32,000 nucleotides of DNA from Opitutales bacterium (GCA_024407725.1 JAKSVZ010000006.1:1-32000), one strand, 5' to 3'. Shown: positions 7,395 through 28,189, numbered from the stretch's first letter. Program-made: numbers and translations. Notes: generated from the letters alone by a model not told the origin.

Positions 7395-7520
7395 GAATAA
7401 TCTTTTCTAAAAAATTTTTGTTTCATTTCCCCAAACTATCCCACCCTTGTCAAGAGTGTTTTGCAAACAAGAAAAATTTAATAGCGTTTTATTTCGAAAG
7501 GTTTTTTGACTAAAAACATT

Positions 7521-10500
7521 TTATTTAAGTGCGGTTTTTATTAAACCGAAAAACTTATCAAAAAACTCTTTCAAACGTTTCCAAATGGCGTCTTGTCGCG
7601 CAAAATTGCCCCTATCTTTTAAGCTTTGGAGGTCTGCTGGTAAACAATTTATAAATCCGCTGCCTTCGCGGCTTAAATCTTCTTCTCGTTCGAAGGCATT
7701 TTCTACAAATGCTTTTGTTTTTTCAGGGTCTAAGCGCGCTTCTCGGATGATGGTACTCAATGCTTTTTCTTTTTGCTCACGAACGAAAGATGGCCATTTT
7801 TGAGAAGATTTCTTAAGCTTTATAAACTCTAAGATAAGGTCTTTCTTATTGCGAAGGAAGGGGGTGGAATCGATCATACGATTGATATGGTCAGTGAATT
7901 CGGGTTCATTTTTTGATGCACGCTGTTGATCGTTGAGGGCAAGGATATAGTCGATATCGACAGCAAATTCTTGCACCAATTCCATTGAAAAGAGCACATC
8001 TTCTTTAATACTTTCAGCATTTTCCTTGCGTTCCTGTTGAAATTGCTGATAGAGGGTAATGTAAAGCGATGTGTAATCTTGGCGTTCCCCCTCGGTGAGG
8101 CGCTTTTCTTCTGTAAATTCATCGAAAGTTATTAAAAAACTGTGTGTTTTTAAGAATGTATTGAAAAGTTCGATAAATTCTTTTTGTTTTTGTTCACCCA
8201 CAATGTCCTGTTTGGGTGAAAATGCTCTCAATTTTTGGATGATTTCTTGGTAACCCAAATGATGGCCGGTTTCATCCTCATACCCTTCGTAATAATCCTT
8301 AAACGATCGCATGAGCACAAAGCGTTCTGTGTCTGCATTACCGAACAACCGAAGGGCGTTGGATAAATCGTTGTTTAAATCGCGGAAGCATACAATATTG
8401 CCTGCTTGTTTGTGCTCATTTAAAATGCGGTTTGTGCGTGAAAACGCTTGAATAAGGCCATGATACACAAGCGGTCGATCTACAAAAAGGGTATTTAACC
8501 GTGGGGCATCGAAGCCGGTTAAGAAGATGTTTACAACAAGCGTTAAATCGACTTCCCCATTCTTAATTCTTCGAGCAAGATCGGTGCGATACCCATCACA
8601 ATCGGAAATAGCGTACTGGGTATTAAAAGTACGGTTGTAATCCTGAATGGCTGTTTCGAGTGCTTCACGCGCAGAAGGTTCCATGCGTTCTGCTTGAAAC
8701 TCACTGCCATTGTCCTGATCAGGGTCTTCATTCGCAGGGTAGGTAAAGATGGTTGCAAGTTTCAATGAGCTTTTGGCTGTTTGCAATTGGTTTTTAAACT
8801 CTTTGTAATAAAGGCGCGCGGAGGTGATAGAATCAACAGCGAAAAGTGCGTTAAACCCGCGCGCCTTTTCTTGTTTTCCATTCGAGTTTGAAACGGTATA
8901 AGTTTTATCCCGCTTGGTTTTATCTTCAAAGACCTCTAAGATCTTTTGTACGACGTTCTTAATCCGTTCGGGTGCCTGATACGCCTCTTCGCGATTGATA
9001 GCTCTAACGCGTTTATCTTTAATCGCCTCCTTGGGTGCAAAGGTTTGATATTGCTGGAACAAGAACTTTAGGACGCTTTGATCGCGAATAGCGTCTACAA
9101 TCGTATACGTGTGCAAACAAGAACCAAAAACCTGTTCGGTTGTTATCATTCCCTTAAAGGCATTTTCTTTAAAAATAGGGGTTCCGGTAAAACCAAAGCA
9201 GATATGGTCTTTAAAGCGATCCAGGATACCCCGATGCAGCTCGCCAAATTGGGAGCGGTGGCATTCGTCGAAGATAAAAACAACCCGTTTTGAGTAAGCA
9301 GAATGTGTTTTGTATCTTTTAATCAAGAGCCCCAATTTTTGAATCGTCGTAACGACGATTTTCGTGCTTTTATCTTCGAGGTGTTGATTTAAAACGTCGG
9401 TTGAAACGCTCCCTGCGACGCAGTTTTTTTTAAACTTATTGTATTCTGCTACTGTTTGAGCATCGAGATCCTTGCGATCGACAACAAACAGCACTTTATC
9501 AATACTGGGCAAATCTTTCGCGAGCTGCGCCGTTTTAAACGACGTCAATGTTTTTCCGCTGCCGGTTGTGTGCCAAATATACCCACCTGCTTTTTTCGTT
9601 CCGATGGTTTTACAGCTGGTTGCCATGCAAATGCGCTGCAGGATTTTTTCACATGCTGCAATTTGATAAGGGCGCAGGATTTTCAAATCCTGAGTGGTAT
9701 CAAAAACGCAGTACCGAAGTAGCAGGTTCAACAACGTATTGCGGTTAAAAAATGTTTGCGTGAAATCTTCTAAATCATGAATGGGGTGATTTTTTTGATC
9801 GGCCCAATGAAAGGTAAATTCAAAACTTTTGCGCGTGCGGGTTGGCGATGCTTGATCGTATTTTATTTTGCCCAGACGCAAGGTGTTGGAATAATACCGC
9901 GTGCGCGTTCCATTGGAGATTACAAACAATTGCACCCAATTGAAAAGTCCATCGCCGCTCCAAAAACTGGTGTCTTGATAACGTTTGATTTGGTTGAACG
10001 CTTCGTGAAGGCTATCTTCTCCCCCTTTCCCACGGCGCTTTAACTCGATGTGCACCACGGGTAATCCATTGAGTAAAATCGTCACATCGTAACGTGATTT
10101 GCGCCCTTCATGTTCCTCTTCGTACTGATGCAATACTTGCAGGATATTTTCATTAATGTACTTTTTATCAACCAGCTTGAGATTGCGAAAGAGTTTACCC
10201 TTGCGCTTTAATGCCCATTCTGGGTTTTGTTGAAAACGCTCTGTTTTTTCAACTACCCCTTCTCGCTTGTTGGCTAAAACTTCTGAGTAAAATTTTTCCC
10301 ATTCGCTATCCGTAAAATGAAAACCTTCCGGTCCATCTTCTTTGTGCGTGTTGAGTCGCTCCATTTGCTTCCGAAGGTTCGCTTTCAAACCGTCTTCGTT
10401 GTGTACCTTCAAGAACTCATACCCTAGATCTTTTAAAGCTTGAATAAAGGTGGCTTCCAATTCCGCTTCGCTTTGATAGGCCGTGTCCGTTCGCGGTTTC

Positions 10501-10595
10501 GGCTCAAAAGACGCTAGCACAGTCCAAGAGAAAGGCTTTTCTGAAGCAACCAAACCGTCATCCAAAGGTGTTTTTTCCAAAACGTGTTTTAACAT
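7521..10595 (-). CDS. hsdR: type I restriction enzyme, R (endonuclease/translocase) subunit
   Basis: The 1024-aa ORF is intact. It has the SF2 helicase motifs HTTGSGKT and DECHRSQ, then TGTPIF, and a nuclease-type N-terminal region. It lies directly downstream of hsdS. Confidence 0.92.
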   Translation of the reverse strand: MLKHVLEKTPLDDGLVASEKPFSWTVLASFEPKPRTDTAYQSEAELEATFIQALKDLGYEFLKVHNEDGLKANLRKQMERLNTHKEDGPEGFHFTDSEWEKFYSEVLANKREGVVEKTERFQQNPEWALKRKGKLFRNLKLVDKKYINENILQVLHQYEEEHEGRKSRYDVTILLNGLPVVHIELKRRGKGGEDSLHEAFNQIKRYQDTSFWSGDGLFNWVQLFVISNGTRTRYYSNTLRLGKIKYDQASPTRTRKSFEFTFHWADQKNHPIHDLEDFTQTFFNRNTLLNLLLRYCVFDTTQDLKILRPYQIAACEKILQRICMATSCKTIGTKKAGGYIWHTTGSGKTLTSFKTAQLAKDLPSIDKVLFVVDRKDLDAQTVAEYNKFKKNCVAGSVSTDVLNQHLEDKSTKIVVTTIQKLGLLIKRYKTHSAYSKRVVFIFDECHRSQFGELHRGILDRFKDHICFGFTGTPIFKENAFKGMITTEQVFGSCLHTYTIVDAIRDQSVLKFLFQQYQTFAPKEAIKDKRVRAINREEAYQAPERIKNVVQKILEVFEDKTKRDKTYTVSNSNGKQEKARGFNALFAVDSITSARLYYKEFKNQLQTAKSSLKLATIFTYPANEDPDQDNGSEFQAERMEPSAREALETAIQDYNRTFNTQYAISDCDGYRTDLARRIKNGEVDLTLVVNIFLTGFDAPRLNTLFVDRPLVYHGLIQAFSRTNRILNEHKQAGNIVCFRDLNNDLSNALRLFGNADTERFVLMRSFKDYYEGYEDETGHHLGYQEIIQKLRAFSPKQDIVGEQKQKEFIELFNTFLKTHSFLITFDEFTEEKRLTEGERQDYTSLYITLYQQFQQERKENAESIKEDVLFSMELVQEFAVDIDYILALNDQQRASKNEPEFTDHINRMIDSTPFLRNKKDLILEFIKLKKSSQKWPSFVREQKEKALSTIIREARLDPEKTKAFVENAFEREEDLSREGSGFINCLPADLQSLKDRGNFARQDAIWKRLKEFFDKFFGLIKTALK

Positions 10596-10718
10596 ACTGA
10601 TTTACTTGGGTTTTTCAAAAGATAACAATTGATCGCGATAGTAGGCGTACTGCTTTTTACGCCCCTCAATTTCCGCCGGAAGACCATCAATAAGGTCGTT
10701 GCAAAGCGCATCAAAACG

Positions 10719-10770
10719 ATCTAGAATACGCACAATGCGCGCTTGTTCGGAAAGAGGCGGGAGAGGGATG
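10719..10770 (-). repeat. hsdS conserved-region direct repeat, copy 1 (partner at 11303-11354)
   Basis: Two exact 18-mers, atctagaatacgcacaat and agaggcgggagagggatg, occur in both copies with the same 34-nt offset. The copies are 584 bp apart in the same orientation. Confidence 0.85.
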
Positions 10771-11269
10771 CGAATGGAAGCAAATTTACTTTTTGACAAT
10801 CCAAAACGTGTTAGACCTGTTGCTAGCTGATAAATCTGTTTTTGTACATCCGAACTCTCGAAGAGGTAACACAAATAAAATGCTGTTGTAAGATTCTTTT
10901 CGTTTAAACGAAAACGCATAAGGTGATAGCTGTAACAAGCATTTTTTATCGTTTCAATTGCAACTGCTGCGTGCCCAATATCATCACGCGTTTCTGAAGT
11001 CGGTGTGATAAACAAATCACCTGCCTCAACCGTACAAGCTGCAATTTTTCGTTCGGATGCTGTTACCATCATCTTTGGAATAGATACATCTAGCCTTTTA
11101 TGACGATATACATCCATATAATTAAACAGTATCACTGCTTTTTCGTTAGCTCTTATTTTTTTATCTACTCCAATGCTTGAAAAAATACCAAGCTCCCCCA
11201 ACCTTACCCGTGGGCATTCCCGCCAAAGGTCAGGAGTTTATCGCGGTAATACGCAAACTGTGCGCGCCT

Positions 11270-11293
11270 CTGTGTAAGCTCCTGTGTAAGCTC
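11270..11293 (-). repeat. perfect 12-bp x2 tandem repeat in the hsdS central conserved region (encodes ELTQ-ELTQ)
   Basis: On the plus strand, ctgtgtaagctc at 11270-11281 is repeated exactly at 11282-11293. The minus strand reads GAGCTTACACAG twice. Confidence 0.85.
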
Positions 11294-11302
11294 CGTAAAA
11301 GT

Positions 11303-11354
11303 ATCTAGAATACGCACAATCTCCTCTTGAATCGGCAGAGGCGGGAGAGGGATG
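11303..11354 (-). repeat. hsdS conserved-region direct repeat, copy 2
   Basis: See the copy at 10719-10770. It has the same two 18-mers with the same spacing. Confidence 0.85.
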
Positions 11355-11789
11355 GGAATACCATCTACATCTGTTTTATTAATGGCAGTGATACTTCCAT
11401 GCGCAACAAACGTATCCATCATATGCTGCTCTTGCGTTTTCAGGTAATAAAAAACGAATTTTGTTAAAAGCTCATTATCGCTCCTAGAACGATACGGATA
11501 ACACAAACCCCCTGCCCAGAAAGGTTCTGCTATAAAACTTACAAAGCCTGCATTCCCACGCGCAGCAATACAAAACGCATTACCTTCGTTGTTGTAATGT
11601 CCGTAATAACCGTAAAATTCACGGCTAGAATTTACCACAGGATAAGGGTATCGTTCATTTCGTTCTGCTGAAACTTCATGCTGTTTTAACGTTTCTTTCT
11701 TCAGAGATACGCACACCTCACCCAATGCCCTCCACTCCACACCGTTCGGACAATACATCCGCAATAGTTGTTGCAAGGGATGCATGGGA

Positions 11790-13372
11790 TTAGTTTCCGC
11801 CTTCTAGCTCGGCTATAATTGCATCAATTTTTTCGCGCAATGCCGTCTCTTTTTTAACTATTTCCGCCAGCTGGTTATTGAGCACACGAATATCCACCTT
11901 TTCACGCGTATCGGGTTTTTCTACATAGGACGAAACTGACAAGTTAAAATCCTTCGCTTCAATCTCTTCAGGGGATACCAAGCGAGACTTATGGGGTTGA
12001 TCTGTATGCTCCCGATACAAGTTCAAAATCGTTTGGATGTTTTCCGGCGCTAATTTATTGCTGTTGGTTACTTTGACACATTCGCTGCTCGCATCGATAA
12101 ATTGCACGCGATTTTCATTGCCCTTATGCTTTCGTAAAATCAAGATGCAGGTTGCAATCGACGTCCCATAAAACAGATTGGAAGGCAGTTGAATGACCGC
12201 ATCGATAGCATTGATGCGCAACAAATACGACCGAATGATCTTTTCGGCGCCCCCGCGGTAAAAAATCCCAGGGAAACAAACAATCGCGGCTGTTCCGGTT
12301 TGTTTTAAATAATAAAGCGCATGCAAAATAAACGCGAAATCCGCATTGCTCTTTGGTGCTAATGCACCAGCAGCCGAAAACGCTCATCTGCCTGTAAGGT
12401 TGGGTCGTCTTTTCCAGCCCATTTGATCGAATAGGGTGGATTTGAAACAACCGCATCGAAGCGAAGCTCCTGCTCGTCTTCGGAACAGGTACTAAATCCC
12501 CCATACTGTTTTTTGAGGAAAGCGTGCCCATCGGTCAAGGTATCCCCATGGTAAATTTGGAATTTATCATAGCCGATTCCATGAAGAAGAAGGTTGATAC
12601 GACACAGATTGTACGTGGTTAAATTGAGCTCTTGTCCGTAGTACTCCACATAAGGATCTTGGATAAACTTCTTAAATTTCAACAACAAAGAACCGCTTCC
12701 GCAGGCTGGATCGTAAACATTTTTAATGGTCTTCGTATGTACTTGTGTGCATTGAACAAGCAGCTCAGATACTTCCGGCGGCGTGTAATATTCACCCCCG
12801 CTTTTCCCAGCGTTCGAAGCATACATTCCCATTAAATACTCATAGACATCCCCAAAAAGATCAATGGTGGTTTGCCCTGCTTCCAATTGCATATCCGCTA
12901 CTGCTTGCATCACTTTTAGTAGCTTTGCCTTGCACTCTTTTGGATTATTCCCCAAATGCTTGCTGCTAACATCGATGCTATCAAATAAGTTTTTGAAGTT
13001 TTCTTTACACGATTCATCGAATGCATTAAAAATGGTTTGCAGCGTTTCAGCTAAATCATCAATCGATCCTTCGTGCGCTTGCTTCAACACATTCTTAAAT
13101 AGATGTTCCGCAGGAATAAAATATCCCTGAACTTCCATAATGCGTTGACGCGTTTCTTCATCCACCGCCTGGGTTCCCTGAGACCAACCTTCCAGCGCCC
13201 TATCATGCTCTATGTAATACGTTAAACGTTCTGAAAGATACCGGTAAAAAAGCATCCCTAACACATCCTGCTTGAAATCCCAACCATCAACACTACACCG
13301 CCAGTCATTTGCGATAGACCAAATAGTACGGTATAATTCTTCCCGTTCTGATTCGCGATTTGTATTCGTCAT
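11790..13372 (-). pseudogene. hsdM: type I R-M N6-adenine DNA methyltransferase HsdM, interrupted by one frameshift
   Basis: The N-terminal ORF (13372-12359) has the HsdM N-domain (DWRCSVDGWDFKQDVLGMLFYRYLSE), motif I DPACGSGSLL and motif IV VVSNPPYS. It ends ...ADERFRLLVH*. A shifted frame continues [51 protein letters not shown]..., which is the canonical continuation, through to 11790. Confidence 0.85.
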
Positions 13373-13381
13373 AACAGCGTT

Positions 13382-13409
13382 ATATTACAAATATAAAAGC
13401 CGTTGTCGA
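13382..13409 (-). promoter_or_regulatory. candidate hsdM promoter (TCGACA-16-TAATAT), which would give a near-leaderless mRNA
   Basis: The minus strand reads tcgaca (13409-13404), a 16-nt spacer, then taatat (13387-13382). The -10 ends 9 nt before the hsdM ATG at 13372. Confidence 0.25.
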
Positions 13410-13426
13410 TTCATTTAAAGCTATTT

Positions 13427-14338
13427 TTACGCGCGCGTATGATAACGGTCGTAGGTTTCGCGCAACTGCGTTGGGTTGAGGTGCGTATAAATTTGCGTGG
13501 TAGAAATATTGCTATGCCCCAGCATCGCCTGAATACTGCGTAAATCCGCGCCATTACACAGCAAATGCGTTGCAAAGGTATGGCGCAACTCATGGGGTTT
13601 GACGGAATGACCTAAGCCGACCGCCTGCCCATAAGCTTTGAGATAGCACCAAAGGGTTTTGCGGGAAATGGGCGTACCGCGTTGGGTCAAAAACACAAAA
13701 TTACCGCTTTTGGGGCGCAACAATTTCGGGCGTCCATGAACCAAATAATACTGCAAATGCTCTTTCGCAACTGACCCCAACGGTACCCAACGCTCCTTGC
13801 TGCCTTTACCGTAAATTTTGAGCGCATCCTCCTCAAGGAACAGCGCCTGCAAGGTTAATCCGCAGACCTCCGAAATACGCAACCCACAGCCGTACATCAA
13901 GGAAATCATGGCGCGATTGCGCATCCCTTGAGGGCTTACCAAACTCATGCTTTTCTGCAAGGCTTCCACCTCATTGACTGACAAGGTTTGCGGCAAAGGA
14001 CGCGTGCATTTAGGAGCAACCGCCTGAGCCATTGGATTCGCTTTTAATTGCCCATTTTTAGACAAAAAGTTAAAAAAACGCCGCAAACAGGCCAATTTTC
14101 GTGCGCGCGAGGTTGGACTCATCGACAGTAACGCTTGCTGCCATTGGTCAATATGCTCTGGGGTGATACGCTCTACCGAAACGCCTGCGGTTAGCTCACA
14201 AAACTGCTGCAAATCATAACGGTAGGAAGCTTGTGTGTTGGCCGACAAACCACATTCAATCGCTAAATAACCCAAGAAGGATTCGATTAATGCGCTCCAT
14301 TGATCCTTACCAACGCATCGCTTTCGTTCCGTCACCAT
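13427..14338 (-). CDS. xerD: site-specific tyrosine recombinase XerD (XerC/D family)
   Basis: 303 aa. Contains ECGLSANTQASYRYDLQQF, GLRISEV, GKGSKERWVPLG, HELRHTFATHLLCNGADLRSIQAMLGHSNISTTQIYTHL and the catalytic Y. Confidence 0.8.
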   Translation of the reverse strand: MVTERKRCVGKDQWSALIESFLGYLAIECGLSANTQASYRYDLQQFCELTAGVSVERITPEHIDQWQQALLSMSPTSRARKLACLRRFFNFLSKNGQLKANPMAQAVAPKCTRPLPQTLSVNEVEALQKSMSLVSPQGMRNRAMISLMYGCGLRISEVCGLTLQALFLEEDALKIYGKGSKERWVPLGSVAKEHLQYYLVHGRPKLLRPKSGNFVFLTQRGTPISRKTLWCYLKAYGQAVGLGHSVKPHELRHTFATHLLCNGADLRSIQAMLGHSNISTTQIYTHLNPTQLRETYDRYHTRA

Positions 14339-20144: not shown

Positions 20145-21650
20145 TTAGGACAATTCTCGATTTCTTTGGATTTGGCGATTCAACCGGAACACCGAAATAA
20201 CCCACACGGTCGCACAGGTCAAAAACACCACAAACGCATAGATCGCAATGCTTTCGTAGGTTGCTTTAACACCCGATAAGGCACTTACCAAGGACAACAG
20301 AATAACCTGCAAGCCCGAACCAAAAGATTTTCCAAAGCGATAACCAAATACATCGGCAATTGCCTTACCCTTTACCTTGAGCTCATCATCCAAGGGGATA
20401 AACGCCATCTCTTTGCTCATATCGAAAAAGGACATTTTAAATCCTTTATCAAGCACCAACGTTATCAATCCAACATACACAATGGTCGTTTGAATCCCTG
20501 CCATCATTCCCACGCTCCCCGATAAGAACTGTTCACCCAAGAACGACAGAAATAAGCAAACTCCTCCCACTAACACAACCATAGGAGTTAGCATAGCCCC
20601 TACTCCCCATTGGAATCGCCGGAATATGTAGCCGGTAATGAGCACCACAACCATCGAAAGTACACCGTATATAAACGTGTACGCGCTCATAAAGGTATTG
20701 TAATCGTTGATGTTGGGATAAATAACCTTAACCGCATGCTTCCAGAAATTCTCCAAGATGTTATCGCAGACGCTGTAACAGAACACCAAGAAAATGAGCA
20801 AGCGAACATAATGCGAACGCACAACCACCTTTAAACTGTTCCAAAGACTACTTTTCTTTTTGTCTTTTACGTGAAATCCGGGCAATTCCGGCTTATTATA
20901 AAAGCGTTTGTCGGTCAAAACATGCCGATAAATCCAATGATAAATACACATCGACAAAACGCTGGTTACCGTCACCGATCCAATCAACCAATAAAGCGTT
21001 ATTTGCCAAGGATCCGCACAGGACACCTTTTCGCGGATATTTGAAGCGATAAAACCAACCCCTCCTGAAATCGTTACCGCTCCCTGCCCCAACAACAACA
21101 AAACCCCATAAATACGCTTTGCTTCCTGCAACTCCGTAATTTGGTTCATAAATTGCCAAAACGAAAGCGACAAAATAAACGTACTCCACAGCTCTGCAAA
21201 GATAAAGAACAGCGCATAAGGCCAAACCCCAATAATCGCAAACGCCAACCCACACGATGGGAATTGCGCTTGAAGCTGAGCAATGCTATCCGCCGATGGA
21301 CACACATAATGCTTGAGGGGGTACAAAACCAATACAAATACGACGAAAAAGCTAACAAACGACCCCAAAGTAGCATAGTATAAATGCTCGTTCTTCAAGC
21401 GATCGCTGATCTTGGTATACGCCAGCATGAATAAAATCGCTGCCGGCGGCACCAAAAATAATTTGATAAAGGCAATTGCTTCCGCCCCCACAGCCGTTAC
21501 CACCAAAGAATCCTTGATGTTTTTGAGGCAATAATGGTTAAAAAGCGAAAAGAATAAAATACAGGCTAAAGGAACGATTTTTTTGAGCTCATAAGCATGT
21601 ACAGGAAAAAAGATTCCCCTAAGCTTTGAAAACTGACCGGTCTCCTCCAC
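20145..21650 (-). CDS. nucleotide transporter, ATP/ADP translocase (NTT/TLC family)
   Basis: 501 aa and polytopic. The N-terminus FSKLRGIFFPVHAYELKKIVPLACILFFSLFNHYCLKNIKDSLVVTAVGAEAIAFIKLFLVPPAAILFMLAY closely parallels the N-terminus of chlamydial and rickettsial Npt/Tlc proteins. Confidence 0.9.
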   Translation of the reverse strand: MEETGQFSKLRGIFFPVHAYELKKIVPLACILFFSLFNHYCLKNIKDSLVVTAVGAEAIAFIKLFLVPPAAILFMLAYTKISDRLKNEHLYYATLGSFVSFFVVFVLVLYPLKHYVCPSADSIAQLQAQFPSCGLAFAIIGVWPYALFFIFAELWSTFILSLSFWQFMNQITELQEAKRIYGVLLLLGQGAVTISGGVGFIASNIREKVSCADPWQITLYWLIGSVTVTSVLSMCIYHWIYRHVLTDKRFYNKPELPGFHVKDKKKSSLWNSLKVVVRSHYVRLLIFLVFCYSVCDNILENFWKHAVKVIYPNINDYNTFMSAYTFIYGVLSMVVVLITGYIFRRFQWGVGAMLTPMVVLVGGVCLFLSFLGEQFLSGSVGMMAGIQTTIVYVGLITLVLDKGFKMSFFDMSKEMAFIPLDDELKVKGKAIADVFGYRFGKSFGSGLQVILLSLVSALSGVKATYESIAIYAFVVFLTCATVWVISVFRLNRQIQRNRELS

Positions 21651-21802
21651 GAGATTTATTATTAAGAACTATATTAAGTAGTAAAAATAATACCTCCGTC
21701 AATATATTTAACAATCGATGCTTCCCTATTGTTGGAGCATGGTTCTCGATAAATATACTACGCGCAACCCGCTTGAATACTTAAGAAAACCACACAAAAA
21801 GC

Positions 21803-21831
21803 TTGCCAAACCGCTTAGATTCGCTTATTAT
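21803..21831 (+). promoter_or_regulatory. promoter-like module P+1 (AAAGC-TTGCCA-17-TATTAT)
   Basis: ttgcca at 21803-21808, a 17-nt spacer, and tattat at 21826-21831. It is preceded by aaagc, forming the 11-mer aaagcttgcca shared with P+2. Confidence 0.35.
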
Positions 21832-21850
21832 AAAATATGTAAGCAGAAAA

Positions 21851-21894
21851 TCATGTTCGTTTCAGAAAATCTTCATATTCGTTTCAGAAAGTTT
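21851..21894 (+). repeat. 22-bp x2 tandem direct repeat
   Basis: tcatgttcgtttcagaaaatct (21851-21872) is followed by tcatattcgtttcagaaagttt (21873-21894). By eye 19 of 22 positions are identical. It starts about 13 nt downstream of the P+1 predicted transcription start. Confidence 0.8.
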
Positions 21895-22152
21895 TATTGA
21901 TTTCTCTCTAGAATCTTACGGTATGCATTGCAACCAAATGAAGAAAATAGACACACTTTATAGGGATTTTGGATCTAATGTTACTCTGTACAAAACGATA
22001 CAACCTAACTAAAATCCACCCCCAAAAATCTAATTGCTATCTTCAAAATGGGATTACATTAATTATAATATACAAATATTTTTGAGTCAAACAAATTTGA
22101 TACCAACGCTTAAACAACACCCTTATATAGCCCAACTTACAAATAATAAAGC

Positions 22153-22180
22153 TTGCCATGGAAACAAATATAGGTATAAT
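22153..22180 (+). promoter_or_regulatory. promoter-like module P+2 (AAAGC-TTGCCA-16-TATAAT)
   Basis: ttgcca at 22153-22158, a 16-nt spacer, and tataat at 22175-22180. It lies antisense within the 22043-22249 minus-strand ORF. Confidence 0.4.
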
Positions 22181-22352
22181 ATTTATGTCTATTACAGGCA
22201 ATTTGTTTAAATATACCTCATCCCAAAAAGACGAAAATAGAAGAACCATCTAATGTAATAAAATCTATACACCCTATAAGGTCTTGCTATCGCGTTTCAA
22301 TAGATAAAACCAAAAACTTTGCCAACCAGATTCAGGATCTTCTTCTAAAAGA

Positions 22353-22381
22353 AATTTAACCCAAAAAGCCTAGGACGTCAA
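22353..22381 (-). promoter_or_regulatory. promoter-like module P-1 (CCAGAATTGGC-TTGACG-17-TAAATT)
   Basis: The minus strand reads ttgacg (22381-22376), a 17-nt spacer, then taaatt (22358-22353). The -35 is embedded in the exact 16-mer gtcaagccaattctgg (22377-22392, plus strand). Confidence 0.4.
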
Positions 22382-22450
22382 GCCAATTCTGGTAGAGAAG
22401 CCGGATTTTACACAAAAATTCTTCTTATATCCATACTACACCTATAAAAT

Positions 22451-22470
22451 GCCCTTTAACCTAAAAGGGC
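22451..22470 (-). terminator. rho-independent-type terminator hairpin (minus strand)
   Basis: gcccttt (22451-22457) pairs with aaagggc (22464-22470) across a 6-nt loop. On the minus strand the hairpin is followed by ATTTTAT. It lies about 340-360 nt downstream of the P-2 predicted start. Confidence 0.5.
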
Positions 22471-22569
22471 AATGCGCGTTAACAACCGTTAAAGCTCTTT
22501 CACTATCGGTACTGCATTTTGCCAGCCCGATCTCTGCCACTCATTCAATCGATTAGCTAAATAAAAAGC

Positions 22570-22597
22570 TTGTCAATTTAAACGGTATATGGATAAT
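22570..22597 (+). promoter_or_regulatory. promoter-like module P+3 (AAAGC-TTGTCA-16-GATAAT)
   Basis: ttgtca at 22570-22575, a 16-nt spacer, and gataat at 22592-22597. It is preceded by aaagc, as in P+1 and P+2. Confidence 0.35.
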
Positions 22598-22814
22598 AAA
22601 AATGTTATTTTGGAAAATTTATTTTTAAATGATAAACAAGCCGTGCAAAGCATTTATCTTAAAAGTCGTTTTCTTCTAGATAATTGAAGTAGATACAAGG
22701 ATAATCTAATAGTACGTGATAGATGCACAATATATGGATTTATCATCTCGCTTCAGATTCCAGTAAGTTGAAAAAGCGCATTTTTCAAATCCTTCAATAA
22801 CAAAGAGCAGGCAT

Positions 22815-22843
22815 AATTAATCAAAAACCCCAGAGGATGTCAA
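22815..22843 (-). promoter_or_regulatory. promoter-like module P-2 (CCAGAATTGGC-TTGACA-17-TTAATT)
   Basis: The minus strand reads ttgaca (22843-22838), a 17-nt spacer, then ttaatt (22820-22815). It is embedded in the second exact copy of gtcaagccaattctgg (22839-22854). Confidence 0.4.
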
Positions 22844-22865
22844 GCCAATTCTGGAGCGATAAGAC

Positions 22866-22886
22866 GGTGTTTTCCTTGTAAACACC
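22866..22886 (-). terminator. hairpin just downstream of the sua5 stop; possible weak terminator
   Basis: ggtgttt (22866-22872) pairs with aaacacc (22880-22886) across a 7-nt loop. The minus-strand tail GTCTTAT is only weakly U-rich. Confidence 0.3.
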
Positions 22887-22907
22887 CAGCCACCATTCAA
22901 CTTTATT

Positions 22908-23899
22908 TCAGCTTAAATCCCGAACAGCAGCACGTGACAAGCGGTCATTAATCGCTTTCCCTATACCGGAATCTGGCGCCTTTTCCATCCAAATAGATTG
23001 CCACTGTTGGTTATCCAAGCGTTGCAAGCAATCAAACAATGAGGCAGCCACTTCCGACAAATCCCTCTTGGGACTCAAAACAAACTCATTGGACGCCAAA
23101 GGACGGCACGGTGGATATAAAAACACATGCGCAGCACCCACTTCAAAAGTCTTTTGGAGCTCAATCGGCGCCTGAAATTGCTCTAAATGGCGCACTAAAT
23201 ACAGCAGGGTTTTCGGGCTATAATGGCGTTTATAAAGTCCTGGAGACAAATGCACTCCATTAACGGGTACGGACGAAAGCGTTTGGATAGGACGCTCCAA
23301 AAACGCCTCCAATGCCTCTTGGGTGATGGGTCCTTGGCGCAACAAAGTAGGTTGTTCTTCCGATACCAAAGAAAGAATGGTTGATTCCAACCCAAAGGAA
23401 CACGGACCTCCATCGAGTATGTAGGCCACTACATCCCCCATTCCTTGCGCAACATGCTGAGCCGATGTAGGGCTAACCTGCTGAAAACGGTTAGCGCTCG
23501 GGGCCACCAAGGGTTCTCCCATTAACTCAATAACTGCTCGAAATAAAGAACCTGATGGGCAACGCACCGCCACTGACGGTTGACCTGCCGTTACGCAAGC
23601 TGGCACACAGGCTTTTTTTTTAACACCAAGGTCAATGGACCGGGCCAAAAATGCTTTACCAAACGCAACACCAAAGGGGTAACCTCAGCCACCAACCGTA
23701 ACTGTTCCACGCCTAATACGTGAACAATCAATGGATTTTCTTGAGGACGCTGCTTGAGCGTATAAATTTTCTTAATCGTATCAACCGCAGATAAAGGGGC
23801 GGCTAACCCATAAACGGTTTCGGTTGGCAATGCTACCGGTTCTCCTTTGGACAACCACGCAGCTGCTTCTTTAGGACTTACCCCAACCTGCGCCCGCAT
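22908..23899 (-). pseudogene. tsaC: threonylcarbamoyl-AMP synthase Sua5/TsaC (long form), split by a frameshift in an A9 tract
   Basis: The N-terminal ORF (23899-23591) reads ...ALPTETVYGLAAPL...KQRPQENPLIVHV...FWPGPLTLVLKKKPVCQLA*. The second frame continues ...KKKACVPACVTAGQPSVAVRCPS...PLVAPSANRFQQVSPTSAQHV...ILDGGPCSFGLESTIL plus a Sua5 C-domain. The frames switch at T9 on the plus strand (23613-23621). A10 would give one product of about 330 aa. Confidence 0.85.
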
Positions 23900-23906
23900 A
23901 AAAGGA

Positions 23907-24119
23907 TTACAGCAACGCTAACATATTACGAGCCCGTTTGATGAGCTTCGTAACATAACGCTGTTCCATAGCGCTTAAACGCGTAATACGACGCGGCAAA
24001 ATTCTACCTGATTCCGTCGTGTATCGCTTGAGCTGTTCCACATCCAACCACGTTAATTCCCATACGTTAACGCGTTCTTTTTTACTTTCAGTATTTTCTT
24101 CTTTACTCACAGTACTCAT
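23907..24119 (-). CDS. rpsR: 30S ribosomal protein S18
   Basis: 70 aa. LKRYTTESGRILPRRITRLSAMEQRYVTKLIKRARNMLALL matches the S18 core (GKIxPRRxTG...QR...AIKRAR..ALL). Confidence 0.75.
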   Translation of the reverse strand: MSTVSKEENTESKKERVNVWELTWLDVEQLKRYTTESGRILPRRITRLSAMEQRYVTKLIKRARNMLALL

Positions 24120-24163
24120 AGCTCTTAACAGAAAACCATTACAAATGATGCAGGTATCGTAAA

Positions 24164-24200
24164 GCTTTTATTTTGAAAACCGCAAGCGAAAAATAAAATG
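24164..24200. repeat. AT-rich imperfect inverted repeat in the rpsR/nusA divergent spacer
   Basis: gcttttatttt (24164-24174) and aaaataaaatgc (24189-24200) can pair over 11 bp with one bulged base. The loop is 14 nt. Confidence 0.5.
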
Positions 24201-24330
24201 CTGCCTTTCATCCACCCTATCCATTCTCCCACCCCACTCCGCTGAACGCTTTTCTTAAGCTCATCTGGGCTTACTTGGGGAAAGTTTGACAAATAGCGTC
24301 TGATTTTATTGAGTAAGGGCAATAGTTTTT

Positions 24331-25599
24331 ATGAAAGACGATCTGTTGCCCATTTTTGAATACATGGAACGCGAAAAAGGTATTAGCCGCGAAGACATGA
24401 TCGCTGCGATTGTTAATGCCATTAAAAAAGCTGCCCTGAAAGACAATCAGGATGCGAAAGAAATTCGTGTAGACATCGATCCAAAAACCGGAGTTTTACA
24501 AGCCTATGCTCAGTATAAAGTCGTAGATTCGGTTCTTAACGACAACATCGAAATACATATCAGTAAGGCTTTGAAGAAACACCCAAAAGCCAAACTGGGG
24601 GACATTATAGAAGAACCGCTTAAATTAGAATCGTTGGGACGTATTGCAGCGCAAACGGTTCGTCAAATGATCAACCAAAGCGTTCGTCGTTTTGAAAAAG
24701 AGCATATTTACGAACAATTCCAAGATCGGGTAGGCACTATCATCCAAGGGGTGATGCGCTACAGCGAACATGGGAATTTAATCATCGATTTCGGAAAAGC
24801 AGAAGGAACCTTGTTTCATAAACAGGCTATTTGGTCCGATAAATTCCAACCCGGCGATCCCGTTGATTGCTTATTACAAAGCATCAAGGAAACCCCTCAT
24901 GGTCCTGAATTGGTATTATCCCGTACCGCACCAGCCTTTGTTATTAAATTATTAGAGCGCGAAATCCCAGAACTCGTTTCGGCAGATGGACGCCCTGCAC
25001 GTATTCAAATCAAAGCCATTGTAAGAGACCCTGGGTATAGAACCAAAATTTGCGTTACATCGCCCGATTCTAGCATTGATCCCGTTGGTGCGTGCATCGG
25101 ATCGCACGGCTCACGCATTAAATGCGTTCTTAAAGCATTAGGGGAACAGGAAAAGATCGACATTATCCGTTATTCGGATGACCTGCGTACCTTTATTAAT
25201 GAAATTACACGGCCAGCAGTTCCCCAATCCCTATCGATTGATGATGCCGCGCACACAATCCAATTTCAATTACCTGAAAAAGACTTCGCTATTTTCGTAG
25301 GTAAAAGCGGACGCAATCTAAAGTTAGCAAGTCAATTGCTCGGATACGAAATCAAAGTAGAGCACGCGGATAGCATCAACCTAAGCTTTGAAGATAAAAA
25401 GATTCAAGCGATGCAAACATTGATCCAATTTACAGGTATATCAGATGCAGCCGCCGCTAAATTGGTAGACATAGGTATCAATAGCCCAGAAGTACTGAGT
25501 AGCTTAACCGCCGATGATTTTAAGGCTGCCGAACTCAACATGGAGGATTACGATAAGATCATCAATAAACTTCAAGCTCAAGGGAAGCAAAGCAACTAG
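24331..25599 (+). CDS. nusA: transcription termination/antitermination factor NusA
   Basis: 422 aa. The N-terminus MKDDLLPIFEYMEREKGISREDMIAAIVNAIKKA is NusA-like. It has an S1-like region, KH-region motifs (DPVGACIGSHGSRIK) and a C-terminal HhH-like region. It sits upstream of infB. Confidence 0.92.
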   Translation: MKDDLLPIFEYMEREKGISREDMIAAIVNAIKKAALKDNQDAKEIRVDIDPKTGVLQAYAQYKVVDSVLNDNIEIHISKALKKHPKAKLGDIIEEPLKLESLGRIAAQTVRQMINQSVRRFEKEHIYEQFQDRVGTIIQGVMRYSEHGNLIIDFGKAEGTLFHKQAIWSDKFQPGDPVDCLLQSIKETPHGPELVLSRTAPAFVIKLLEREIPELVSADGRPARIQIKAIVRDPGYRTKICVTSPDSSIDPVGACIGSHGSRIKCVLKALGEQEKIDIIRYSDDLRTFINEITRPAVPQSLSIDDAAHTIQFQLPEKDFAIFVGKSGRNLKLASQLLGYEIKVEHADSINLSFEDKKIQAMQTLIQFTGISDAAAAKLVDIGINSPEVLSSLTADDFKAAELNMEDYDKIINKLQAQGKQSN

Positions 25600-25619: not shown

Positions 25620-27794
25620 ATGACCGTTAGCATTTATCAATTAGCTCATCAACTGCATAAGGATATTAAAAGTGTCCGCTTATTGATTAAACAGCACGGT
25701 ATTGCACTACCAGATACGGCTTCTACCCTATCGGATACCGACGCAAATGCGTTATTGAAGAAGGTACAAAGCAATACTCAATCAGCTCCTGTTGCTTCTC
25801 CTGCGCTCAAAAAACCTTTAATGGGGAGCGCTCCTGTACGCATTGCCTCCCCTAAAAACCTAGGGGGTTCTCAATCCATAACCGCCTTAAATGCGTTTAA
25901 GAAAAGCTTTGCGCCGGCTGCACCCATCGCTGCTCGCCCCGCACCCATAACTGCTCCAAAAGCTGTTACAAAGCCCGAAAACACACCAAGCGCAGCAGGT
26001 TCGGTTACAAAGGATGCTGTCAAAACAGACCAAAATCGGGTCATAAAGCCCCCAATTACCTTAACCGAGCTGGCCAACCTATTAGGGGTTAAGCCCTTTA
26101 CCCTCATTAGGGATTTAATGGATCAAAAGATTTTTGCATCCATGGGGCAGGTTTTGGACGAAAATGGCTTAAAAGTACTAGCAGATAAGTATAACTTTAC
26201 GGTTGAAACCAAACGCCGTTCTCAGGAACGCAAAGTTCAACCAGCTCCTGTTAAACCCAAAGTTGAACCGTCCGAGCACTTAGAGCCACGCCCACCGATT
26301 GTGTGCATTTTAGGCCACGTCGACCACGGGAAAACTACCCTGTTAGATACATTGCGTAAAGCCAATGTGGCCGCCAAAGAAGCGGGTGGAATCACCCAAC
26401 ACATTGGAGCTTATCAAGTAGAGGTAGAAGGGAAAAAGATTACCTTCCTCGATACTCCGGGACATGCCGTATTTTCAAACATCCGCCAACGCGGAGCAAC
26501 CGTAACCGACATCATCATTTTGGTTGTTGCGGCTGATGATGGCTTTATGCCTCAAACCAAAGAATCCCTGCAATTGGCGCAAAAAGAAAACGTACCTGTG
26601 GTGGTTGCCATCAACAAAATGGATGTTAAGGGCGCCAACATTGATCGCATTAAACAACAGATGCAAGCAAACGGGATTGCCCCCGAAGAATGGGGAGGCG
26701 ATACGCTATGCACTGAAATTTCGGCTCTCAAAGGAACCAACCTTGATAAATTACTCCAGTTGGTGTTATTGCAGGCTGAAATGATGGAGTTAAAAGCCAA
26801 TCCTAAAGGAACACCGGAAGGCGTGGTAGTTGAATCCCGCATGGAAGAAGGTCAAGGGATTGTAACAACCGCCATTATTACCAGCGGAACGTTAAAGGCA
26901 GGAGATGCGCTTGTTAGCGGCGCTCATGTCTGCAAAGTTCGCTGTTTGTTGGATGAACATGGCAAGCGCATGGCTCAAGCTACACCGGCAACACCCGTTC
27001 AAATTACGGGATGGGTCACCATGCCTTCTGCAGGCTGTACCTTCCGAGGCTCTAAAAACGAAAAAGAAGCCCGTAAGGAAGCAGAAGCATGCGAGCGCGA
27101 ACTGAAACAGAACCAAAGCAACAATGTTCATAAAATTTCCAGCGTTGAGGATTTGATGGCTGCTATGGAAACCCAGCAGCAAAAAACTCTGAAAATCCTG
27201 CTTCGTTCCGACGTCCATGGTAGTTTAGAGGCGCTAGAAGCCTGCCTAAAGAGCATTCATAGCGATAAGGTGGCGCTCAATATTATCGATACGCGCGTCG
27301 GACAAATTACGCTCAACGATATTCAAACCGCCCATGCGGGTAAAGCGATTATCGTTGGATTCAACACTAAACCAGCGAATGGCGTGCAAGCCGCAGCTAA
27401 GCAAAAGGGTGTGCGCATGATTCAGCATAACATTATCTACGAACTCATTGAGCAGGTAAGAAATGCCATGCGTGAATTGCTGGATCCTGAATGGAGCGAA
27501 ACCAAGCTTGGTTCAGCCGAAATCCGTAAGGTTATTACTTTATCTAAAGGTACGGTTGCCGGATGTATGGTGGTATCGGGACAAATCGTTCGCGATGCGT
27601 TTGTCCGCTTGATTCGCAAAGGAAAAATCATTACCGAAACCAAAGCTTATACCCTCAAACACTTCAAGGATTATGTGGCAGAAGTAAAATCCGGAAACGA
27701 ATGTGGAATTGGATTGGAAGACGCTGCATCCGATTGCCAAGAGGGTGATTTGATTGAATGCTACAAGAAGGTTTCAAGTTTGCCGGAATTATGA
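25620..27794 (+). CDS. infB: translation initiation factor IF-2
   Basis: 724 aa. The N-terminal part is Ala/Pro-rich. The GTPase motifs are [17 protein letters not shown] and NKMD. The C-terminal domains are conserved. Confidence 0.95.
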
Positions 27795-28189
27795 CCAATT
27801 TGCGCATCATTCGGGTGAATGAGTTACTCAAACGCGTTATTGGCGATTATTTGCTTAAGCATTACGCATCGGAAGCCATGAGTATCACTATTACACACGT
27901 GACCGCTGCGGATAACTTAAAAGTCGCTGATGTCTATTTTTCCGTCTATCAAATAGAGCAGAAAGAACAAGCACTTAAGTTGCTCATCAAACTCCGCAAA
28001 AACATACAGGACGCTATTGGGAAAGAAGTACGGATGAAACAAACCCCACGGCTTTCGTTCGTATGGGATAAGGAGCTGCAAAAAGCTCACCGTACCTTTG
28101 CCTTGTTACAAGAAGTTGACCAGTCATTGCCCGAAAGCGCTCCCACAAGTTTTGGAAGTACCCTACCCCCTCCTAATGAACTCCGCTAA
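27791..28189 (+). CDS. rbfA: ribosome-binding factor A
   Basis: [21 protein letters not shown]...ITITHVTAADNLKVADVYFSV...TPRLSFVWD. The ATG at 27791 overlaps the infB stop (ATGA). The ORF-track start at 27758 lies inside infB and is less likely. Confidence 0.85.
   Translation: MTNLRIIRVNELLKRVIGDYLLKHYASEAMSITITHVTAADNLKVADVYFSVYQIEQKEQALKLLIKLRKNIQDAIGKEVRMKQTPRLSFVWDKELQKAHRTFALLQEVDQSLPESAPTSFGSTLPPPNELR

Follow-up and report, generated by a model that had tools for sequence, protein, structure and literature searches.

Does a bacterium obtain a working tRNA-modification enzyme from a gene whose reading frame changes in the middle of a catalytic domain? This question is raised by the tsaC/sua5 locus in a stretch of DNA from an Opitutales bacterium (GCA_024407725.1, JAKSVZ010000006.1:1-32000), all 32,000 nucleotides of which are referred to below as the window. 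tsaC/sua5 is a core, near-universal tRNA-modification gene, and its product TsaC makes threonylcarbamoyl-AMP (TC-AMP) for the N6-threonylcarbamoyladenosine at position 37 (t6A37) of ANN-decoding tRNAs, including tRNA-Lys(UUU). In the window the reading frame of this gene breaks at a run of nine A's (A9), and the names given to the locus by NCBI are a hypothetical 102-aa protein and a truncated TsaC. A preliminary description of the sequence had left three options: a sequencing or assembly error in the homopolymer, a real frameshift for which transcriptional slippage or ribosomal frameshifting on the poly(A) tract compensates, or genuine gene decay. The analysis presented here points to a real and maintained frameshift that is probably rescued at the A9 tract, mostly by transcriptional slippage, with -1 ribosomal slippage possibly contributing.

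The gene is read on the minus strand, where the A9 run lies at 23613..23621 (T9 on the plus strand); no other homopolymer of nine or more bases occurs in the window. Open reading frame 1 (ORF1, 23899..23591) encodes 102 aa ending in ...LVLKKKPVCQLA*, while ORF2 (23648..22908), which overlaps it, is in the -1 frame relative to ORF1. The codons of the upstream (0) frame at the tract are GTG TTA AAA AAA AAG CCT, and the tail of ORF1 before the 0-frame stop reads ...FWPGPLTLVLKKKPVCQLA*. This stop, a TAA at 23591..23593 located six codons past the AAG, ends the unshifted 102-aa product, and its position is identical in all haplotypes described below. One extra A in the tract (A10), or a -1 ribosomal shift on the heptamer A_AAA_AAG (23612..23618), would give ...LVLKKKACVPACVTAGQPSVAVRCP... 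and a protein of 330 aa, in agreement with the length of about 330 aa expected previously for the addition of a single A. A tract of seven A's would restore the frame as well, with a product of 329 aa. The heptamer, a canonical slippery sequence for -1 shifts, shares its phase with the 0 frame (TTA AAA AAA AAG CCT), and a shift by -1 would read ...K K K A C V...

The coding potential can be divided exactly at this tract. The N-terminal segment (23613..23899, minus strand, frame 1) runs from M1 to K95 plus two nucleotides and is supported by Pfam, NCBIfam and the ratio of non-synonymous to synonymous substitution rates (dN/dS). The C-terminal segment (22908..23612, minus strand, frame 2), supported by Pfam, alignment and dN/dS, runs from A97 to S330 and the stop codon. 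When the two are joined, the repaired protein matches Sua5_yciO_yrdC (PF01300, 1.3e-53) over residues 16-190, that is, across the junction at 96/97, and Sua5_C (PF03481, 1.2e-21) over residues 192-325. On the equivalog model TIGR00057 it scores 156.6 bits, with the curated cutoff at 123.2, and it aligns with the Sua5 of S. tokodaii (PDB 2eqa) through the junction with no gap. The AlphaFold (AF2) model of the repaired protein has a mean predicted local distance difference test score (pLDDT) of 94.8 and places the junction K96/A97 at the end of the core strand 89-95.

The catalytic KxR/SxN tetrad and the linker motifs PG(M) and HY of this family have been defined before (PMC6004061). Here, the tetrad is divided between the two ORFs, with K49-x-R51 in ORF1 and S135-x-N137 in ORF2; the C-terminal segment also holds the linker motifs P220-G221 and H226-Y227 and the SUA5 domain. 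All of these residues (K49, R51, S135, N137, P220, G221, H226 and Y227) are invariant columns in an alignment of 38 sequences, and the third linker residue is L instead of the M of PG(M). Both domains of a long-form Sua5/TsaC, a score above the TIGR00057 cutoff, the tetrad and the linker motifs are thus present, while a single uninterrupted ORF is missing due to the change of frame at A9. The suggestion that the two ORFs are parts of one Sua5/TsaC which share its hallmark motifs, and that the frames switch exactly at the tract, is thereby borne out: the region 23899..22908 is confirmed as a Sua5-type threonylcarbamoyl-AMP synthase gene split at A9. Since the unslipped 102-aa fragment carries only half of the KxR/SxN tetrad, it is presumably inactive.

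The identical A9 and frameshift were found in the window and in 12 fetched loci, which come from about ten independent datasets and several assemblers. All of these loci contain the exact string GTG YTA A8 G CYT GTG TGC C, with the A9 in it, and the sources are UBA3869 (DGGR01), GCA_003521725.1, AUXO01, ERZ12302818, ERZ28612953, ERZ914904, SRR873605, SRR873608, SRR29277947, SRR25030071 and SRR17543914. The contig names are of the SPAdes (NODE_), MEGAHIT (k87_/k141_) and Logan styles and of those of UBA and other metagenome-assembled genome (MAG) pipelines, and the haplotype of the window itself was assembled independently from SRR17543914. Protein clusters at 90% identity contain additional 102-aa ORF1 products encoded on more contigs, of which the longest measures 285 kb. 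The A9 carriers fall into six haplotypes with DNA identity of 88-98%. With one of the related loci, L054, the window shares about 18 kb of colinear sequence (93% identity). Almost every indel between the two in coding regions is net in-frame and the remainder lie at gene ends, and a T8 run within the hsdR ORF of the window stays in frame. Neither of these two assemblies has general homopolymer trouble. As the same A9 and frameshift occur in some ten independent datasets and six diverged haplotypes, a sequencing or assembly artefact is effectively excluded.

The length of the run is also preserved in its immediate context. The Leu codon on its 5' side has an A in the third position in all haplotypes despite a TTA/CTA switch, which holds the run at nine; A-ending codons account for 33% of Leu codons in the genes of the window. 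The kept A-ending codon weakly favours a length requirement for the run, as do the other genes of the window: in its 16 Pfam-supported ORFs A_AAA_AAG is not encountered in phase at any other place, and the only other KKK is encoded by AAA AAG AAA. The G that follows the run is present in all A9 haplotypes.

Comparison of the tract length in related genomes, which had been proposed as a check, shows how the A9 is distributed. In the protein search there is a gap: matches at 90-94% identity are all split, and the next ones, at 66% identity or less, are full length. The outgroups at 59-66% identity are in frame, and in the DNA of five of them the corresponding Lys residues are encoded by interrupted runs (CTG AAA AAG AAA; TTA AAG AAA AAA; TTG AAG AAG AAA; TTG CCA AAG AAG; CTT CCC AAA AAA). 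Because the outgroups are in frame with interrupted runs, and because of the identity gap between split and full-length matches, the A9 frameshift is a derived character shared by one genus-level clade.

Within this clade one in-frame allele was observed. At locus L061 (1474-1489, SRR24912631) the codons are CTA AAA AAA AAA TCC, i.e., A10 followed by T and not A9 followed by G, and the encoded protein of 332 aa contains LVLKKKSCVPACV. A neighbour-joining tree nests L061 among the A9 haplotypes, which makes it an apparent revertant. The allele confirms, at the level of sequence, where the two frames join, and it indicates that reversion is accessible, yet A9 predominates.

A different tract was noticed in a sister clade of about 70% identity, where locus L050 (1100-1140, ERZ914824) has TTG AAAAAAA GCC, an A7 at the same KKK site. 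It falls one A short of an in-frame A8, and a perfect Sua5 is obtained once an A is inserted. Either a separate frameshift at this hot spot or an error may explain the A7; as a second conserved event it was set aside, since it is present on a single 1.6-kb contig only. Most short N-terminal Sua5 fragments from other phyla (P0126-P0140) look like contig-end truncations, and no clear recurrent frameshift was seen among them. Two more candidates for split genes, P0056 and P0060, were rejected as in-frame fragments at contig ends.

We next consider the constraint on the two halves. Between A9 haplotypes, with synonymous divergence (dS) of up to 0.5, the Nei-Gojobori method gives dN/dS values of 0.05-0.09 in the N half; in the C half they are 0.07-0.12 for diverged pairs and 0.23 for the near-identical L001-L020 pair. 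Fisher p values range from 2e-8 to 6e-23. In the operative frame, 33% of third positions are variable versus 6.5% of the others, and no additional stops or indels are present in the 989 nt of the six haplotypes. Over the 24 codons upstream of the tract the frame-1 peptide is near-invariant, with one H/R change, whereas many positions differ when frame 2 is translated. After the tract the situation is reversed from the first codon on: five of the six haplotypes share an unchanged frame-2 peptide, ACVPACVTAGQPSVAVRCPS, and frame 1 varies. For instance, the GCC/GCT difference after the tract is synonymous in frame 2 and would be Pro versus Leu if read in frame 1. Thus, it can be concluded that both halves are under purifying selection and that protein-level constraint lies on frame 1 before the tract and on frame 2 after it.

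The values of dN/dS in both halves and the lack of further lesions speak against gene decay, and the conservation of the tract speaks against an error. With these two options rejected, the rescue of a real frameshift by slippage on the poly(A) tract is the one left, and the sequence comparisons are consistent with it. The tract is one A short of being in frame, and the frameshift is real and inherited and was kept through speciation-level divergence; we propose that the full-length 330-aa enzyme is made by recoding at A9. By the main route, RNA polymerase would slip on the T9 template and add one A, and the resulting A10 mRNA would be read by ordinary translation as ...LVLKKKACVPACV... By a second route, tRNA-Lys would slip back by one nucleotide on the in-phase A_AAA_AAG during translation; this gives the same protein and may contribute.

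The main route has precedents. Runs of nine A/T are reported to lead to efficient slippage of bacterial RNA polymerase, mostly with the addition of A's, as in dnaX of T. thermophilus (PMC5009743, PMC3711429). The commonest slippage product of A9 is A10, and A10 is precisely what restores the tsaC frame. The A9 stands at the frame transition and its length is at or above the threshold of about 8-9 nt of A/T for transcriptional realignment (PMC3711429, PMC5009743), and both the slip site and the frameshift are conserved, with both ORF parts under purifying selection. As in T. thermophilus dnaX, there is a 9-nt A run in the coding strand; there, the polymerase adds A's and the edited mRNA is then read in another frame by standard translation (PMC5009743, PMC3711429), which is what we propose for tsaC. 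The two cases differ in the gene family and in the outcome, as slippage in dnaX adds a shorter product beside that of the unedited transcript, whereas in tsaC the genomic frame gives the 102-aa fragment only and slippage would be needed for the sole plausible functional product.

A second precedent is mxiE of Shigella flexneri, which encodes a virulence regulator and has a T9 run where slippage fuses two ORFs. The Shigella slippage case is mentioned in PMC5009743. Both genes have a 9-nt homopolymer at the overlap of two ORFs, and in both one extra nucleotide in the transcript would fuse these into a functional protein; unlike mxiE, tsaC encodes a core tRNA-modification enzyme. In Buchnera and Blochmannia, as cited in PMC5009743, poly(A)-interrupted genes are rescued by polymerase infidelity. 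The analogy to these insect endosymbionts, drawn in the preliminary description, is apt as regards mechanism: a housekeeping gene is out of frame in a poly(A) tract and is retained across strains, with rescue by slippage in the endosymbionts. It does not extend to the genome. The endosymbiont genomes are tiny and very AT-rich with many tracts, whereas the tsaC DNA has a GC content of about 44%, the contigs of relatives reach 285 kb, and the lineage is one of rumen Opitutae. Judged on the window (GC 37-47%, about 44% overall), the segment is not AT-rich, poly(A) tracts are few, and multiple interrupted genes are not seen: homopolymers interrupt no other conserved gene of the window, and the lesion of hsdM affects a T4/T5 run within a mobile island.

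Several points weigh against this proposal. That slippage occurs, and by which machine, is something that we infer and did not observe; moreover, the protein obtained from A10 mRNA is identical to that from a -1 ribosomal shift, and the two mechanisms are thus inseparable by sequence. It could also be that A9 is merely tolerated as a neutral, "good enough" state and not selected. As for signals that might accompany recoding, an upstream Shine-Dalgarno (SD)-like element is not conserved, as the GGTG located just upstream of the tract in the window is absent from L001, which has CTTGTGCT in its place, and from L020. The downstream fold has a minimum free energy (MFE) of -23.5 kcal/mol and z = -1.19 versus shuffled sequences, which is not significant, and the alifold consensus has one compensatory pair and a weak 6-bp inner hairpin that lies 12 nt downstream, where 5-9 nt would be expected of a stimulatory stem-loop or pseudoknot. 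Synonymous variation dips only modestly near the tract, and several other regions are more conserved. Because of the missing SD-like element, the non-significant fold and the modest dip, we see no sign of a stimulated, high-efficiency signal for programmed ribosomal frameshifting (PRF). Rfam searches gave no match at the gathering threshold in the window and none at E<=1 within 21600-24400.

These observations bear directly on the alternative which survives best, namely that the rescue proceeds mainly by -1 PRF on A_AAA_AAG and not by transcriptional slippage. The heptamer, of the form X_XXY_YYZ (23618-23612, minus strand), is exactly in phase with the 0 frame, a G follows the run in every A9 haplotype, and the 0-frame stop lies six codons downstream. 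A_AAA_AAG is also the -1 site of E. coli dnaX (PMC5009743, PMC3711429), and E. coli ribosomes in vitro slip backwards on consecutive AAA codons (PMC9207662). However, while E. coli dnaX shares the identical heptamer in the correct phase, its upstream SD-like stimulator has no conserved counterpart in tsaC and its downstream hairpin no convincing one; in view of the z-score and the single covarying pair, the downstream fold was not accepted as evidence of a PRF stimulator. In addition, the run is held at nine A's though the heptamer requires six. We consider this alternative unlikely.

It is considerably less probable that the enzyme works as two pieces, i.e., ORF1 with its approximately 96 useful residues and an ORF2 product re-initiated after the tract, assembled non-covalently. 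Such an arrangement would be compatible with purifying selection on both pieces and with a conserved GTG two codons past the tract, which gene callers use as a start (P0002). However, the break is located within the TsaC-like domain, where a core beta-strand ends, and parts KxR from SxN, the codon that separates the GTG from the tract shows no change other than a synonymous one in frame 2 (GCC/GCT), and an in-frame fused allele (L061) exists within the clade. Truncated Sua5 pieces have been reported to be unstable (PMC6004061), and slippage at an A9 tract is predicted by known biology anyway.

A phase-variable switch at the level of DNA, with A9 off and A10 on by replication slippage and assemblies reporting the majority state, appears improbable to a similar or slightly greater degree. 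Homopolymers are hot spots of indels, and one A10 allele (L061) and, in the sister clade, one A7 allele (L050) were seen. Toggling of tract length among close strains was not found, though, since the window and all 12 fetched loci have A9. Were A9 truly null under such selection, the ON state should dominate populations, and L061 also has a G-to-T change, which makes it a fixed haplotype and not a simple toggle.

Very little speaks for a plain pseudogene in a host-dependent lineage that is losing t6A synthesis: a TLC-family ATP/ADP translocase gene in the window hints at host dependence and another gene of the window, hsdM, is genuinely frameshifted, but purifying selection has acted on both halves of tsaC since the frameshift arose (dN/dS 0.05-0.12), with no further stops or indels. 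Least credible of all is a homopolymer error hiding a true A10, for even though homopolymers are error-prone on some platforms, the A9 is reproduced across datasets, assemblers and haplotypes and the window and L054 show no comparable trouble elsewhere.

Rescue by slippage at A9, the reading that we prefer, opens a further and openly speculative possibility, to which we give little credence: the tsaC frameshift might act as a homeostatic t6A sensor, an autoregulatory loop resembling that of release factor 2 (RF2, prfB) and built on tRNA modification. The AAA AAA AAG site inside tsaC is decoded by tRNA-Lys(UUU). If t6A were scarce, under-modified tRNA-Lys would slip by -1 more often and more full-length TsaC would be made; with t6A replete, most ribosomes would terminate after 102 aa. 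This presupposes that part of the rescue is ribosomal. The persistence of A9, though A10 is one easy mutation away (L061), is what would be expected if the out-of-frame state were beneficial. prfB is known for its autoregulatory +1 frameshift; the likeness is conceptual only, in that the gene's own product could control the efficiency of recoding, and for tsaC such feedback is purely hypothetical, while the direction (+1 versus -1) and the mechanism differ. Native modifications of tRNA-Lys reduce frame loss on AAA runs up to 25-fold in an E. coli in vitro system (PMC9207662), and yeast t6A mutants show increased +1 and -1 frameshifting (PMC4717488). Matched DNA and RNA runs from sheep rumen that contain a sister haplotype are public (PMC4158751).

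The surroundings of tsaC are partly conserved. Upstream, rpsR (ribosomal protein S18, Pfam PF01084, 23907..24119, minus strand) lies 7 nt from the tsaC ATG, and the two genes are probably co-transcribed; their order is kept in most of the relatives and outgroups examined (L020, L024, L027, L028 and L054). On the other side, tsaC is adjoined by a gene for a TLC-family ATP/ADP translocase (20145-21650, minus strand, Pfam PF03219, 2.4e-137), which is present also at L020 1598-3103, L021 4778-6280, L051 1899-3404 and L054 11345-12703; its position next to tsaC is kept in relatives and in the 66%-identity sister clade. Between the two genes there is an AT-rich spacer of about 1.2 kb (21706-22906, GC about 37%), which in L054 measures about 150 nt, and it contains no Pfam-supported ORF and no Rfam match. 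The sequence immediately 3' of tsaC occurs twice, as a 40-nt direct repeat (22353-22392 and 22815-22854, 75% identity), and this suggests a small insertion or duplication in the spacer. tRNA genes were found neither in the window nor in the ten larger related loci scanned.

TLC translocases are a marker of energy parasitism or intracellular life and are unusual for Verrucomicrobia/Opitutae. A chlamydial origin, which the translocase might suggest, is rejected by the names of the homologues (Opitutae, Puniceicoccales or Verrucomicrobia). Near-identical loci come from the sheep rumen metagenome AUXO01 (runs SRR873605 and SRR873608), and others are from assemblies with sample labels that point to sheep and cattle rumen studies. 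The lineage is an uncultured one of Opitutae, present in metagenomes of the sheep rumen and probably of the cattle rumen as well. The translocase, together with the rumen origin of the related contigs, suggests an association with a eukaryotic host, e.g., rumen protists.

Two further features of the window were noted. A type I restriction-modification island of about 6 kb (7465-13425) lies beside a tyrosine recombinase gene (13427-14338) and comprises hsdR (7521-10595), two half-size hsdS ORFs (10602-11201 and 11204-11785) and hsdM, which is split into two ORFs on the minus strand (12359-13372 and 11790-12326). Since the island is missing in the otherwise colinear L054, it can be regarded as a strain-specific insertion. 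The lesion region of hsdM (12326-12400) has CGTTTTCGG where CGTTTTTCGG would read RFSAAGALAPKSNADFAF, and the gene appears to be split by a 1-nt deletion in a short T run. We read this as an ordinary inactivating frameshift on a mobile island, in contrast to the conserved frameshift of tsaC. The second feature concerns RbfA (27758-28189), whose gene ends 14 nt past the likely ATG (28176) of a UTP-glucose-1-phosphate uridylyltransferase gene; in L054 (4279-6105), L055 and L056 the two are called as one fusion of 608-619 aa. The window and L054 differ here by a pair of indels (5 nt and 1 nt) in the RbfA tail (window 28144-28189).

Full-text literature searches retrieved no report of a frameshift or recoding site in tsaC/sua5, and the main text of the GeneTack cluster paper (PMC3711429) mentions neither Sua5 nor YrdC. 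On the reading proposed here, tsaC/sua5 would require poly(A) slippage, as only a few other bacterial chromosomal genes outside mobile elements do. It would represent a recoding site maintained by selection in a near-universal gene for translation fidelity, and the lineage that carries it is not an insect endosymbiont and is not very AT-rich. Metabolic reconstructions that rely on the split annotation would score this lineage as being without an intact t6A pathway. Finally, since the tsaC product modifies the tRNA which decodes the slippery codons of tsaC itself, the locus offers a testable case of possible feedback between tRNA modification and recoding.

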